Positions 54,301-63,300 of a DNA stretch of 64,000 nt are shown piece by piece (within the stretch, counting starts at the first letter, position 1; each line of letters begins with the position of its first letter). The position numbers were made by a program. The stretch covers positions 1,728,001-1,792,000 of the forward strand of contig CP000070.1 in NCBI GenBank assembly GCA_000002445.1, read 5' to 3'. Source of the DNA: Trypanosoma brucei. Its lineage: Eukaryota.

Positions 54301-57300
54301 CTAAAAGAAAAAATCGGTGGCAAAAATAAAGGCACTAAGCTGAATGAGATCGGCACAGCTGCTGAGCTAGAAGCGGTCCTGGCAGCCGTGGACATAAAAC
54401 TTATAGAAACACGATCAAAATTGATAAAACAACTTAACGAAGAAAAGCAGAAAAAGGGGGGAGATGATACCACAAAAACAAGCGAAACAGATGAAACTTG
54501 CCAAGCAAAAGGAACAGGAGATAAATGCACTTCCCCATGCAAGGAGGTCGAAGAAGGCGGCAAAAAGAAGTGCACATTGGATAAGGAAGCTAAACAAACA
54601 GCAGAAGGAGCAGCAAAACAAGAAGGGAAAGATGGAAAAACTGTAGATTGCAGTAAACTTTACACACAAGAGAAATGTGAAAAAGCCAATGAAGGCCAAG
54701 CCACAAAAGTTTGTGGATGGAAGGGAGAAAATACTGATGGATCTGACAAATCCGGTTATAAATGCCGAAACGGTAGTTTTCTAGTAAAAAAACAATTCGC
54801 CCTCAGCGTGGTTTCTGCTGCATTTGTGGGCTTCATAGAATTTAAGAGCTCGAAGGATAATACGAATTTTCGCTTAATTTTTTGAAATCTATGAAAAGTG
54901 CTATTTTGAGAGAATTTGCTAATTTTTTCTAAAATTTGATACAACTTACGATTTTTTGATTAAAGTGTGAAAACTCTAGTTAAATCTGCATAATTATGGC
55001 CTATGTATGTAACGTAGAACCTTGATAGGGCATGAAAAATTAGCGCTACTCTAATTTGGTGTATTTTGTTAATTTTGTTTATGTTATTAATATTAGAAGT
55101 AATTTGGGGTTATAATAATAATAATAATGATGATAGTGATAATAATAGGAGAGTGTTGTGAGTGTGTATATACGAATATTATAATAATAATAGTAAAAAT
55201 AATAGTAATGATAATAATAATGATAATAATGATAATGATAGGAGAGTGCTGTGAGTGTGTATATACTAAAATAATAGGAGTGGTGTTGTTGAAAACCAAA
55301 CGGAAGGATAAAGTAAAGCTCTTAAAACAATGGTGAGTGTGCAAAGAGTATTATTGAAGAAACGCAGGAAGACAAAGAGGGGGAAATAGATGATTAAGAA
55401 TTTAAAGCACAAACATGACGAGGAACACAATTATACTGAAAGAGATGCTTGAAGGATCAATGAAAAAGAGAAAGGCGGAATGCATTGCACTAGCCATATG
55501 GAGGCGCTACAGCATATGCAGGAAGAACGGCTGAAGGAATAAATAAGAAAATAAAATAAGGAAGGAAACAACGGAGAGAACATCAGCATAGGACAGCAAA
55601 AAAAGTTCATAAGGAGAAGCAAAGATTTCATGTATTGTTAAAAAAAATAGATACTGCTGCTAAAATGATGCGGCAAAAAGACTAACAGTAGTTTATAAAG
55701 CAATGGTGATTAAAGTCTCATTGTCAAACTGTTCGGTAAGGGGAGTTATCACAAAGCAACCTTATATATTCTTAGTACAAATCAACTTAGCAGCTCAACT
55801 AGCTGCTGAAATTCCAACAGCAATGCATAGAGGAAAATGTAAATGAAAGGAGTAGCAATACACATGTAGTGTGATGTCAAAGCTATGACTGAAGCTATAT
55901 TCAAAAACAAAATTAGTAGATGCTGCACTAAAAGATACAACATATAAACAGCTGTGCGCACTGGAAGAGGAACCGGAAAAGACACCTTCTGTTGTAGCGG
56001 CAGCGTTAGAAAAACAGAAAACGTCACCGACGACATCCACAGCCACCGGCACAAAAACTTAACATTAAGTAAACTTAGTTTCAGAACACGAAGGCTGACG
56101 GTAGCACCAACATTAGGTCTAATATAGGTTAAAAAAGCAAAGAACGTTCGAAAAAAAAAAAGCAGAAAACAACCCGCCGCGGGAAATAAAGGCTCTACGA
56201 TAAAACAGGGGTCTTTTGGTCCCTGTGCAACAAGTGGCTGACATTCTAAGTCTCCAGCCTCATCAGTGAGTGGTGACCAAGTAGCGGACCCTCGAACATC
56301 AACGCGAAGAAAAAATGCGCACCTAAAGGTTTGAAAGGAAATATGCACACCTTTCCAACAGCATCTCCAAATCAAGGTGTAGCATAAATTGAAGACGAGG
56401 TCTACAACAAGCAAACGAAAACAACCGCAATTTAAAATTTTTTTTGAATTTTCTTCCCGCCTTCGTGGGAGTTTCCCCCCACTGGCGCGGCCATCAGCCA
56501 TCACCGTAGAGCCCTGAGATGCTATCGGTCTGGCAACTGTGGTAGAGTCTCCCTTTTTTATTCAGCCTAACACACCCTCTATAATTTTTTGTTGTAGCTC
56601 CGCATTTGAACGGAATACAGCAAATGGGGCGAGAAGCCTCCCACCCTGGACTCTCCCAAAGATGTCAATTAGCAATCCTTTTGTTTTGATTTTTGTTATT
56701 CGTTTATTATTCTCTCCCCCTTTTTATGTTTTTGATGCTTGTTGACTGCATACCCTCTCTGTCTCTGAGGGTGTCTGGACTATTCCTGCGTCCGGTGCTT
56801 TTCCTGCTGGCTCCACACTCGGCAATAAGGGGGGAAGTTGCAGAAGGGAGAGTGGGTTGTATGACTGTTACATTAGGTGAGGACTTCACCTGCGGCCGGC
56901 TCCGTTCAACCGCAATGAGAAATTGCGCCAGCCTTTTAGAAAAACATACATCTTGCACACACAACCACCCTCTACCGCAAACCTGACACGTAATTCCTTC
57001 AAACCGTGACAGCTCATCAAGTGCAGCGACGTTTCTTCGCAGTCGCCGCGTTGGCTGGTAACAGCGCGCTCTACCTTCATACCGTGCATCTTCTTTTGAT
57101 GTAGGGTGAGGCCAGTTTTGCTAGCACACTGCCTTCCGCATGTCGGGCACACCAACATGGATCTGTTTGTATGCGGGGAATCAGTGGCACACAATTTTGT
57201 GCTTTTGCTGCATTTAAGCTCGACTCCCTCACCTTTGTGGAAAGCCTTACAGTGTCGGATGAGGGAGCCCCTGCAACTGAGCACTTTTTGGCACACACCA

Positions 57301-60300: not shown

Positions 60301-63300
60301 CAGAAGCGTATCTAGGTCAGTTGCCGTGAAGGTGTGTTTTGGTGGGATGTATGCCGACGTGACGGTCAGCGCCGTTCCACATGTAAGGTGAATTGTTGCA
60401 CGCACTTGTTCAATGCGACCAACAACGGCCATACCGGTCTCGACTGGCTGGCCCTCCCTCACTAGTATTGATACACCACCTCCTTTGCAGTTACGAGCTA
60501 TTCCGTGATGTTGGTAGCCAGCAACGCTAAAGCAAGCCGCCTCTCCAGGCGTCATCCTTGTCTCGCTCAACAGACAAAAGGCGATCCGCTCATCAACAAG
60601 GGTTTTGTGGAGTGCTAATCTCTTTCCTTGAGATAGCCCGGCGCAGTTCCACTGCGACCCGCGCAGCGATGGACCGGGATTCTCTTCCACATCACCGGAC
60701 AGCAGCATCTTAGTGCGGATGATACTGCTGATGGCACGCTGGCACGTGCCCAGGGACCGACAAATGAAAAACGGTGTCCCAGCAAGACGCTGCTGATCCC
60801 TGTGCTGTATGATGCCGTAGCCGAAGCACAGCATTGTTCCAAACGAGAGGAGCAATGACGTTCCGTCTGTGCAGAAAGCGAGTTTATGGGCCTTGGGGCC
60901 GCGGTGGTGTGGGTGATGTTTTCGCTGAATGAAAAGGCCCCGCCGGCTCATTCGCGTTGCGCGGGAAGAAGATCAAACCACCTCAGATGTGAATGTTTTT
61001 GCTTACTGAAATAAAACTGTGCTGGGCCAGTCTCGTCGTGTCCGGTGTTTGCGCACCTGAAACTCCCTTTTGTGGTGGAATATCTCCTTTAGGGACTGTT
61101 CGAGTATGTCGGGGTTTTCAGGGGCAGCGCGAACCTACTGCGCGCAGTGGATTGGGCTCATTTTCCAAGGCGGAGTGGTGGCGGTTCTTGGATACACGGC
61201 CGATCCGCAGCTGCGAGTTCGTCAGCGCCAGCCCTTCGGACCTCAGGGGGGGGGAAGTTAGGGCCTGTTTCCCTTTCCAAATCCCCTCAACTACTGTTGC
61301 CTAAAAGAATGCAGGGAGTAGAACCGGAGGGGGGAAACGTTGGGTCCGCCCCGCGTGAAAGCGGTTGGGGCGTACGTCAGGCTTCGCGAGCTGGGGGCGG
61401 TTGTGTTTCGCGTGGGTCCGTTATATTTACCCCTTCCGTTTGTATCCCCACTAAAGAGAAAGTGGTATCCCGATCCACGCTGTATTGCTTCGCCGTGTGC
61501 AATTGCTGTGCCGCTGGGGAGTGCCTTACGGCGTCGTGGGACCGACGTGGCTCGGGGACTTAAGGTGCGCCCTTAAACACCGTGGCTGCTGGCTGGTCAT
61601 GTGTTTATGCTTTGCGATGTGAGGCATTGTGGGGTCGGGCCTTTATGCGGACCCCCGAGGCGTTAGCATGCTTGGTTCTATCGATCATCTCTGTTTGTGC
61701 GCGTATGGTTTCCCCCTCCGTGTTTCGGTGAGGGCAGTGGATGGGGAGATGTCACTGAACAGCGTCGCTGTTGATTATTGTTGCTATGTTATTTTATTTT
61801 CCTAAGGCCACATTGTGGTGCCTAAATACCCGGGTTATCGTCACGCGCATTTATCATTTTTCTATTTAGCCTTTATAGCTGATCCTTCTTTCAAATACAT
61901 TTGCTTGTTCTAGTTTCATATATATATATATTGCAAATGGCAGCTTGGTGCACTTGTTCCGTTGTCGGGGTGATTATTTTCAGAGCGTATATACACCGCT
62001 TGTGGGTGATCGCGGTTTCAAGCCGGTTTACTTTTGTTTTTGAGGACATGTATTGGGGGTGTTACCACTTTTTTGTTCATTGACATTGTACACTTTTTTG
62101 TTTCGGTAAAAAGAAAAAAAACAATGACAGTGATATTTTTTTTTTTCGCTTACCTTCTATATATATACATATATATATATATATATACTTGTCGGTGATA
62201 TGTGTTTGTGTTTGGTGCTGATAATGCTTGCGCTGGGAGTTTCTTTTGTTGGCGTTTGTTTTCTCTGTAAATAAGATCGGCTTTCATTTCACCAATAGTC
62301 CTTGTAATATATCTTTTTTTTTCTTTTTTTTTCTAGGGGGCCATTAGTGCATGTAAGGAGCACTCTTAAGGGAACTTTTGTCAGCAGAATAATCAATGGT
62401 AAGTGTTTTACTTTGGCCATTGCGAGTGCGCTGGACTTTGGGAGCTGGTACTGATACTTCTGTCTTGACGGATTTAAAAAAAAGACAAAAAACTTCACAA
62501 CTATTTCCGAAAGAAAGTAAAGTTTATCCTCTCAAATCAAGTGCGGATCTGTCCCTTTGCACACGCGCTGGTTGACAATAGGTTGATGAGTGACATGTCT
62601 GATCACCTTGTGGTGCGGGTCTTTATTAATTGTCTTGCACTTTATTGATTCATCTGCGCTTTGGCGACTTAGGCGGAGTAGAGGATTGCCAATTCCGTCC
62701 CTTGGAATGGTTTACCGTCTTATTTTATTTTGTTAACCCAGTTGTCTTATGTGTATTCCTTTGTCGGTTGGTGCGAGCTGTGGGTGGGATGCCGATCGTT
62801 TTTTCTTCTGCAACGGCAGAGAGTAGTGCTGATGGATATCGGTAAAGGGTGTTTGCTGCGTCGGTGAAGTAAGTATATCAATAGAAAAGGTACGCATATA
62901 CTAAACATATCACCGCGGGCAAATCCCCGCAACACTCCCGCAGCTCATATAATTCGTCCCCTTCTTGAGCAAGTGGAAACGTGCGGTGCTTTAGGCTTAT
63001 ACAACTCTGTTGCAGATGTTTTTCTGTGCTTCCCCAGCCACTGCAATTCCCTTACTCTCCGTGTCAGGAATAACGTCAGTGACGGGATGTTACAAGTCAC
63101 CGCAAATCGAACCCCAGTCTTCTACACGAAATGTCTACCCGGCATAATCCCGTTTCCACGTATTGGCACGATGCTCAGTCCAACCGCTTTGTGCATTCAG
63201 GCATCAGCGCCACGCAGTTCGCATCATGTCAACCACGTGCATTCCTACGCTGTTGGTGAAAGAATGAGCCAGGAATTGAAGCACATGTACATCCATATGC

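Follow-up and report, generated by a model that had tools for sequence, protein, structure and literature searches.

Two degenerate copies of the retrotransposon Tbingi bracket five VSG genes or pseudogenes on chromosome 7 of Trypanosoma brucei brucei. Very probably, both are dead relics of one deleted progenitor, in an arrangement that was in place before the T. b. brucei, T. b. gambiense and T. b. equiperdum lines separated, and their ~98% identity where they overlap results from gene conversion and not from a recent duplication. The window, i.e. the whole stretch of 64,000 nucleotides that was analyzed, was assigned to chromosome 7 of strain TREU927 by sequence match, and its ORFs were 100% identical to the TREU927 proteins AAZ12713.1 and AAZ12715.1.

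Extent and coding state of the relics

Both relics lie on the minus strand with the VSG block between them, as a sequence-only reading had proposed when it placed two ingi copies in the same orientation on either side of a VSG block. The five-VSG island and its flanking relics appear to sit in a convergent strand-switch region of the chromosome. The features are as follows:

37539-38744, minus strand: short Tbingi relic, 1206 bp (blastn against full-length ingi; three-way alignment)
38666-38744, minus strand: 79-bp 5' signature (Pr77), on the short copy only (three-way 5'-end alignment; signature defined in PMC3820030)
40704-54885, plus strand: block of five VSG genes or pseudogenes, between the relics (Pfam Trypan_glycop, VSG_B, Trypan_glycop_C)
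56438-60851, minus strand: long Tbingi relic, 4414 bp (blastn against full-length ingi L001:2993-8241; tblastn with P0012; lesion list)
56886-58898, minus strand: longest surviving ORF, 670 aa, with the RNase H and C2H2 zinc-finger region (Pfam RNase_H 5.6e-08; sub-threshold zf-C2H2_4 and zf-C2H2; 92% identity to P0001)
59367-60110, minus strand: ORF running from the last part of the APE region through the deletion junction into the RT, of which it has the C-terminal two-thirds with FADD (Pfam RVT_1 7.3e-26)
60852-61650, no strand: G+C-rich flank, included in the element by the sequence-only reading, not ingi (no blastn, tblastn, Pfam or Rfam match)

The long relic corresponds to nt 82-1083 and 1866-5249 of the reference element, with 95.4% nucleotide identity to full-length ingi over 4401 aligned nt. 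It is 5'-truncated by 81 nt, without the 79-bp signature and without the ATG, and ends 3' in an A8 tail (56438-56445) at the same position as the tail of the reference. Its span had been put at 56440-61650; the 3' end of that estimate was within 2 bp, whereas the 5' end was off by 800 bp, ingi homology ending at 60851. Substantially different boundaries had been named in advance as grounds for refuting the sequence-only reading, and at the 5' end the difference is of that order. An internal deletion of 782 bp removes ORF amino acids ~360-604, and because of it the RVT_1 match, to profile positions 66-190, begins only at 66. Holding 4414 of 5249 nt and carrying this deletion in the RT region, the long copy is therefore not "near-complete", as had been thought.

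Searching the long relic by tblastn with the 1656-aa ingi ORF P0012 gave colinear matches at 83-94% identity, and the ORFs of the relics were 90-94% identical to this protein. The domain regions recognized earlier were recovered: the RT with its FADD motif, RNase H, and four of the reference's five C2H2 fingers, the latter intact in the translation read by eye and two of them with sub-threshold Pfam matches. A 2A-like DVEENPGP motif is present near the N-terminus. An autonomous element has one uninterrupted ORF with active APE, RT and RNase H. The long relic, in addition to the lost ATG and the RT deletion, carries three 2-bp frameshifts and four in-frame stops, and the view that it is split into at least four ORFs and is non-autonomous was borne out. 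Neither relic is able to transpose unaided or to give a functional protein, and the only activity plausible for them is as passive substrates of homologous recombination.

The short relic, previously placed at 37540-38655, extends over 37539-38744 and corresponds to reference nt 1-1083 and 1866-1967. Its 5' end is intact, with three mismatches to the reference across the first 81 nt, for which the long copy has no counterpart; it is 3'-truncated at reference nt 1967 and has no poly(A) tail. Rfam did not detect a Pr77/HDV-like ribozyme in the short copy; it was the alignment that confirmed the signature. Upstream of the 5' end, the sequence, read by eye, agrees with the ingi insertion-site motif (PMC3820030) at 7 of its 10 conserved positions, which suggests an ordinary retrotransposition junction.

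The inner, VSG-facing ends are thus intact (with Pr77 in the short relic and the poly(A) tail in the long one) and the outer side of each relic is truncated. No 12-bp target-site duplication could be found around the relics, because in each of them an original end is missing. The 12 nt that follow the long copy's tail (TTTTAAATTGCG) are unlike the stretch preceding its truncated 5' end and unlike the 12-mer upstream of the short copy (ATGCATTATATT). A single ingi insertion split in two was considered and rejected, the inner-end flanks matching at only 3 of 12 positions when the 12-mers were compared by eye. The outer flanks (60852-62904 and 36131-37538) gave no blastn match at word size 7 to ingi, to each other or to the window, no tblastn match to ingi proteins at E<=10, no Pfam match in their ten longest stop-free stretches at E<=1 and no Rfam match at E<=1. 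With all similarity searches negative, the flank at 60852-62904 was rejected as a diverged 5' part of the element.

A shared deletion within a direct repeat

The overlap of the two relics forms a direct repeat, each arm of which contains the deletion junction:

37539-38663, minus strand: direct-repeat arm of the short copy, 1125 bp (self-blastn 97.96%)
59727-60851, minus strand: direct-repeat arm of the long copy, 1125 bp (self-blastn 97.96%)
59829-59845, minus strand: 17-bp filler GACACCTACGCTCGCCG at the 782-bp deletion junction of the long copy (three-way alignment; blastn)
37641-37657, minus strand: identical 17-bp filler at the same junction of the short copy (three-way alignment)

The arms differ at 23 positions without any gap, so that the direct repeat of ~1.1 kb noticed earlier is real. 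The identity of ~98% had been quoted at the protein level; it is true of the DNA, whereas the proteins are ~96% identical, and both substitutions named in support (MLWNCAGLSQ/SQWNCAGLSQ and IIRAKML/IIRTKML) were recovered. The arms are spaced at a period of 22,188 bp, and it is this length, instead of the 18 kb first given, that a crossover between them would remove. Deletion or amplification of the interval through the repeat is mechanistically reasonable; neither was found in the three genomes compared (TREU927, gambiense and equiperdum), which keep the full arrangement.

Both relics lack the same 782 bp of the N-terminal RT region (reference nt 1084-1865; L001 4076-4857) and the 34-nt sequence across the junction is CCGCATTGGACACCTACGCTCGCCGGCTGCCCTC. 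Identical breakpoints and an identical filler point to descent from one deleted progenitor. If the two were instead independent insertions of a young and homogeneous family, in which all ingi copies are similar, their likeness would have no special meaning; the median divergence of TbRIME from its consensus, ~4% (PMC3820030), implies that similarity across the family is high. However, the deletion and filler are missing from the other ingi ORFs compared, the site being canonical in 8 of 8, and the relics are 2.0% different from each other (98.0% identity) compared to 4.3-4.6% from reference ingi (95.4-95.7%). Independent insertion is accordingly a very improbable account, and these alignments support a specific relationship between the two relics. 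In the favored scenario, a progenitor ingi would first have lost 782 bp of its N-terminal RT region, and two of its descendants would then have come to bracket the five-VSG island, this order of events being the presumed one.

The layout may also be read as the trace of one event, in which the 23.3-kb segment 37539-60851 (~1.05 times the 22,188-bp unit) entered the strand-switch region as a single piece. It could have done so through a circular or tandem intermediate of ingi plus VSG block, through an ingi-ingi recombination circle, or by segmental conversion from a subtelomeric array guided by ingi homology, and the truncated outer ends would be the scars. Relics that are intact inside and cut outside, one progenitor deletion present twice, outer flanks unrelated to ingi and the description of VSG islands brought in by segmental duplication (PMC2854126) would all fit. 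On the other hand, two insertions followed by independent truncations give the same layout, neither an empty site nor a donor locus was found, and the 7/10 motif upstream of the short copy suggests ordinary retrotransposition. We regard import as a single piece as unlikely. Were it true, dead ingi relics would be portable homology handles relocating antigen-gene blocks into core chromosomes, and conversion, by keeping the relics matched, would leave them still usable as such.

Age of the arrangement and probable exchange between the relics

Orthologous loci in the other genomes were reached via members of the protein clusters. Chromosome 7 of T. b. gambiense and of T. b. equiperdum is colinear with the window from 24.2 to 64.0 kb, a span that includes both relics with their junctions. 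In these genomes the two relics occupy orthologous positions and are truncated at the same points, and four lesions of the long copy, three stop codons and a frameshift, are common to all three strains. The arrangement is therefore ancestral and not recent: it is older than the divergence of these three lineages, and the "recent common origin" suggested by the sequence-only reading was not upheld. The same observation weighs against a recent duplication, in which one relic gave rise to the other, or a single element to both, and 98% identity reflects young age. Such an event would account for the 97.96% identity and the identical deletion junction, but neither relic is derivable from the other because the 81-nt 5' end is found only in the short copy and the 3.3-kb 3' part only in the long copy; furthermore, the mismatches are strongly clustered and not evenly spread. 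A recent duplication is hence hardly credible.

The clustering of the 23 mismatches leaves one long uninterrupted segment:

37865-38464 (partner 60053-60652), minus strand: 600-bp mismatch-free tract, a putative gene-conversion tract, with six TREU927-specific bases shared by the paralogs (mismatch positions, site patterns, run test)

A run of 600 bp was reached in none of 200,000 simulations (analytic P ~6e-7). Site patterns were scored in six sequences, the short- and long-copy arms from each of the three genomes. Only 3 sites follow orthology, i.e. separate the short copies from the long copies, compared to 24 at which the paralogs of one strain share a difference from all others (18 for both equiperdum paralogs and 6 for both TREU927 paralogs); examples of such strain-specific bases are positions 38264, 38213, 38176, 37983, 37894 and 37877 with their partners at +22188. 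Divergence between strains reaches 4.7% in the repeat versus 0.24-1.7% in the flanks; it is 0.2-1.3% in the VSG-side flanks of the relics and is raised, at 1.6-2.6%, in that 3' part of the long copy which lies outside the repeat. Combined, the site patterns and the mismatch-free tract indicate ongoing conversion, in agreement with the exchange between copies that had been offered earlier as one possibility, and the site patterns are those of concerted evolution. Repeated non-allelic gene conversion between the two relics, and probably with further ingi copies of the genome as well, would keep the 1125-bp overlap at ~98%. The donor of each event would be the partner relic or a third ingi, between which three genomes cannot tell.

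Alternatively, the relics might evolve independently and owe their likeness to the assemblies, mis-mapped reads having homogenized the paralogs during consensus polishing. The largest paralog-shared signal (18 sites) comes from the equiperdum assembly, and TREU927 served as the guide in ordering the gambiense assembly (PMC2854126); if these two genomes were polished with short reads or assembled on a reference, paralogs within an assembly could have become artificially alike, inflating the concerted pattern. Three observations make an artefact distinctly unlikely as the explanation. Firstly, the TREU927-specific tract, a 600-bp identical run with six shared derived sites, lies within the window itself. 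Secondly, the two equiperdum paralogs differ at 43 sites and so were not collapsed. Thirdly, between-strain divergence is also raised outside the repeat, in the 3' part of the long copy.

Conversion thus offers the better account of the overlap, and since it keeps old relics alike, the similarity of T. brucei transposon copies would be unreadable as age. Beyond annotation, to which the analysis contributes the precise boundaries of two ingi relics and a list of lesions, the locus matters little. As the relics exchange sequence while the VSG island's own flanks remain orthologous, it would be a convenient natural marker of non-allelic conversion rates, of modest use, and the 22,188-bp deletion or duplication allele would be a concrete target for population long-read screens.

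Relation to known elements and VSG islands

The relics are of an already known kind and an ordinary feature of a published genome. They resemble Tbingi, an autonomous non-LTR retrotransposon of the ingi/L1Tc clade, in their 95.4% nucleotide identity, in the colinear APE, RT, RNase H and C2H2 regions, in the 79-bp 5' signature of the short copy and the poly(A) tail of the long copy, and in the DVEENPGP motif. In contrast to Tbingi, neither is full length or coding, both carry the 782-bp RT deletion with its 17-bp filler, Pr77 is missing from the long relic and everything beyond nt 1967 from the short one, and no target-site duplication is detectable.

RIME consists of about the first and last 250 bp of ingi. 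TbRIME resembles the relics in being a deletion derivative of ingi that needs ingi proteins in trans, and it has its 5' signature in common with the short relic. However, RIME, a short class of 260-1030 bp (PMC3820030), joins both ingi ends, whereas the relic deletion takes out only nt 1084-1865; with no ingi 3' end and no poly(A) tail, the short relic is not a RIME. TbDIRE, long vestigial and highly diverged, was ruled out since the relics are only 4-5% diverged from intact ingi, which falls within the values given for TbRIME, a potentially active element (median 4%; PMC3820030).

At the scale of the locus, ingi/RIME-mediated rearrangements and conserved internal VSG islands have been described for the T. 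b. brucei and T. b. gambiense genomes (PMC2854126). The present block resembles the internal VSG/ESAG islands of Jackson et al. 2010 (PMC2854126) in that VSGs lie inside a core chromosome, bordered by ingi, and in that the orthologous content is kept between T. b. brucei and T. b. gambiense. That study stresses that conversion is not frequent in conserved islands; in the present locus the flanks on the VSG side are indeed conserved, whereas the bordering ingi relics do appear to convert.

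Extent and lesions of the two ingi relics

In the ORF listing, the coding remnants of both relics are on the minus strand. A 670-aa ORF (56886-58898) shares 92% identity with a "reverse transcriptase" of T. b. equiperdum whose protein cluster includes an intact 1656-aa ingi ORF (P0012). The locus encoding P0012 (L001) carries a full-length 5249-bp element at 2993-8241 that starts with CCCTGGCG, ends with a poly(A) tail and has a visible target-site duplication on both sides. This element served as the reference for all ingi coordinates, and relic boundaries were set by blastn against it and by tblastn with P0012.

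Relics of the Tbingi element in the window
60851 down to 56438, minus strand: long copy, reference nt 82-1083 and 1866-5249, with an A8 tail at the end
38744 down to 37539, minus strand: short copy, reference nt 1-1083 and 1866-1967
60282, 60251, 56964: +2 bp lesions of the long copy
59546, 58883: +3 bp lesions of the long copy
60191, 59369, 59267, 58919: in-frame stops of the long copy
38480-38510 and 60670-60700, minus strand: motif LLSGDVEENPGP near the N-terminus of the ingi ORF, in both relics

Both copies lack reference nt 1084-1865 (782 bp, about aa 360-604 of the ORF), with an identical 17-bp filler, GACACCTACGCTCGCCG, at the deletion junction; the site is canonical in 8 other ingi ORFs of the fetched cluster. 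Because of this deletion, the Pfam RVT_1 match begins only at profile position 66. The motif LLSGDVEENPGP is presumably a 2A-like self-cleaving peptide motif, which is known from L1Tc and ingi. The long copy is devoid of the entire 79-bp signature (Pr77, as defined in PMC3820030) and of a start codon, and the signature is present in the short copy with 3 mismatches in 81 aligned nt.

The sequence-only reading had placed the long copy at 56440-61650. Its 3' end was right, as homology ends at 56438; its 5' end was 800 bp too far, as ingi homology stops at 60851. The adjacent segment 60852-62904 showed no ingi similarity (blastn with word size 7; tblastn at E<=10) and no match in Pfam or Rfam. 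The same reading described the copy as near-complete, an overstatement since it amounts to 84% of a complete element and the N-terminal part of the RT is lost; it correctly called it fragmented and non-autonomous, given the +2 bp insertions, the in-frame stops and the truncated RT. The pair consists of real, well-defined but ordinary ingi relics in a published genome, of an already known kind.

Origin and age of the pair

As each relic holds a part that is missing from the other, neither is a copy of the other, and we infer a single deleted progenitor for the two. The VSG-facing side of each relic is intact and the outer side is cut. This arrangement is compatible with two histories: a deleted, trans-mobilised element would have inserted twice, with independent truncations afterwards, or a 23.3-kb ingi-bounded segment would have been imported as a single unit. 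No target-site duplication that would separate them survives at the relics. By eye, the sequence upstream of the 5' end of the short copy agrees with the published ingi insertion-site motif at 7 of its 10 conserved positions, which hints at an ordinary retrotransposition junction there.

Loci retrieved around orthologs of two flanking proteins cover 24.2-45.1 kb and 43.0-64.0 kb of the window. Over this whole range the window is colinear with T. b. equiperdum and T. b. gambiense, and the colinearity extends to the two relics, the points at which they are truncated and the deletion junction. In the long copy, all three strains share three stop codons and one frameshift. The pair therefore predates the separation of these subspecies.

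Probable sequence exchange between the relics

Self-blastn of the region yielded one repeat, 59727-60851 against 37539-38663 (1125 bp, 23 mismatches, no gaps, 97.96% identity), and a window-wide rerun gave the same match. The 1125 bp were aligned for six sequences, the two paralogs from each of TREU927, gambiense and equiperdum. Only 3 sites split all short from all long copies, whereas 18 set both equiperdum paralogs against the other four sequences. Another 6 sites carry a base that the two TREU927 paralogs have in common and that occurs neither in the other four sequences nor in the reference ingi; all 6 fall inside a 600-bp tract (37865-38464 / 60053-60652) over which the TREU927 copies are identical. 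Given 23 mismatches, a mismatch-free run this long has P ~6e-7; no run of 600 bp arose in any of 200,000 simulations. Between-strain divergence was 0.24-1.7% in the flanks, 1.6-2.6% in the non-repeated part of the long copy and up to 4.7% in the repeat. Combined, these site patterns and divergences are characteristic of non-allelic gene conversion between the relics, a signal that consensus polishing in repeats could exaggerate in the gambiense and equiperdum assemblies. Conversion with other genomic ingi copies has probably occurred as well. Of the two origins proposed from the sequence alone for the similarity of the copies, conversion is thus favored by the site patterns and the 600-bp tract, and a recent common origin is contradicted by the orthologous relics.

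In the APE region, two insertions of 2 bp that shift the frame (60251-60282 / 38062-38094) are distributed patchily: both occur in the two TREU927 copies and the gambiense short copy, one in the gambiense long copy and neither in the equiperdum copies. This patchiness suggests that inactivating lesions too have been shuffled by conversion.

In T. brucei, homologous recombination varies with the length of the substrate, and mismatches hinder it (PMC1904282). With 1.1 kb, 2% divergence and 600 bp of perfect identity, the repeat could plausibly serve as a substrate, and the gene conversion between its arms shows that they do interact. A crossover would delete or duplicate 22,188 bp; besides one repeat arm, this stretch comprises the VSG block, Pr77 and 3.3 kb at the 3' end of the long copy. 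Crossover products, and the deletion or amplification of the interval envisaged in the sequence-only reading, were found in none of the three genomes.

The VSG island between the relics

Five VSG genes or pseudogenes, all on the plus strand, fill 40.7-54.9 kb. The ORFs at 34295-35089 and 53242-54885 are 100% identical to TREU927 AAZ12713.1 and AAZ12715.1, respectively, which places the window on chromosome 7 of T. b. brucei TREU927 or of a near-identical strain. TAA-rich tracts (39046-39297, 45237-45400, 52125-52444 and 54982-55378; 70-78% similar) lie before or after each VSG and look like degenerate 70-bp-repeat regions; the second includes (TAA)52 at 45237-45392, and the last lies past the final VSG, just before the 3' end of the long ingi, with no VSG after it. 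A 388-bp direct repeat (44887-45274 / 48277-48664, 96.9% identity) spans the C-terminal end of two different VSGs together with their 3' flank; the first of these VSGs (43495-45050) is a fragmented pseudogene, with its VSG_B N-terminal part in one ORF and its C-terminal domain in another.

The entire ingi-VSG-ingi block is bracketed by a 705-bp inverted repeat, 35426-36130 (plus) and 62905-63609 (inverted), with 97.6% identity, 17 mismatches, no gaps and no match in Pfam or Rfam. Two convergent genes, themselves only 31% identical paralogs, each have one arm a few hundred bp to their 3' side, and a third, partial copy of the repeat is present just past the window's right end in the other strains (L004:21393-21642).

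Housekeeping genes occupy the plus strand up to 35.1 kb, and the next gene past the window's right end, in gambiense and equiperdum, is a minus-strand paralog of the 34295-35089 gene (L004:20685-21296; 31% identity over 127 aa, E=1e-23). One source names this family 'T. brucei spp.-specific protein'. As the two flanking genes face each other, the site of the island looks like a convergent strand-switch region. Such a setting agrees with the account by Jackson et al. 2010 (PMC2854126) of internal VSG islands and of rearrangements associated with ingi/RIME.
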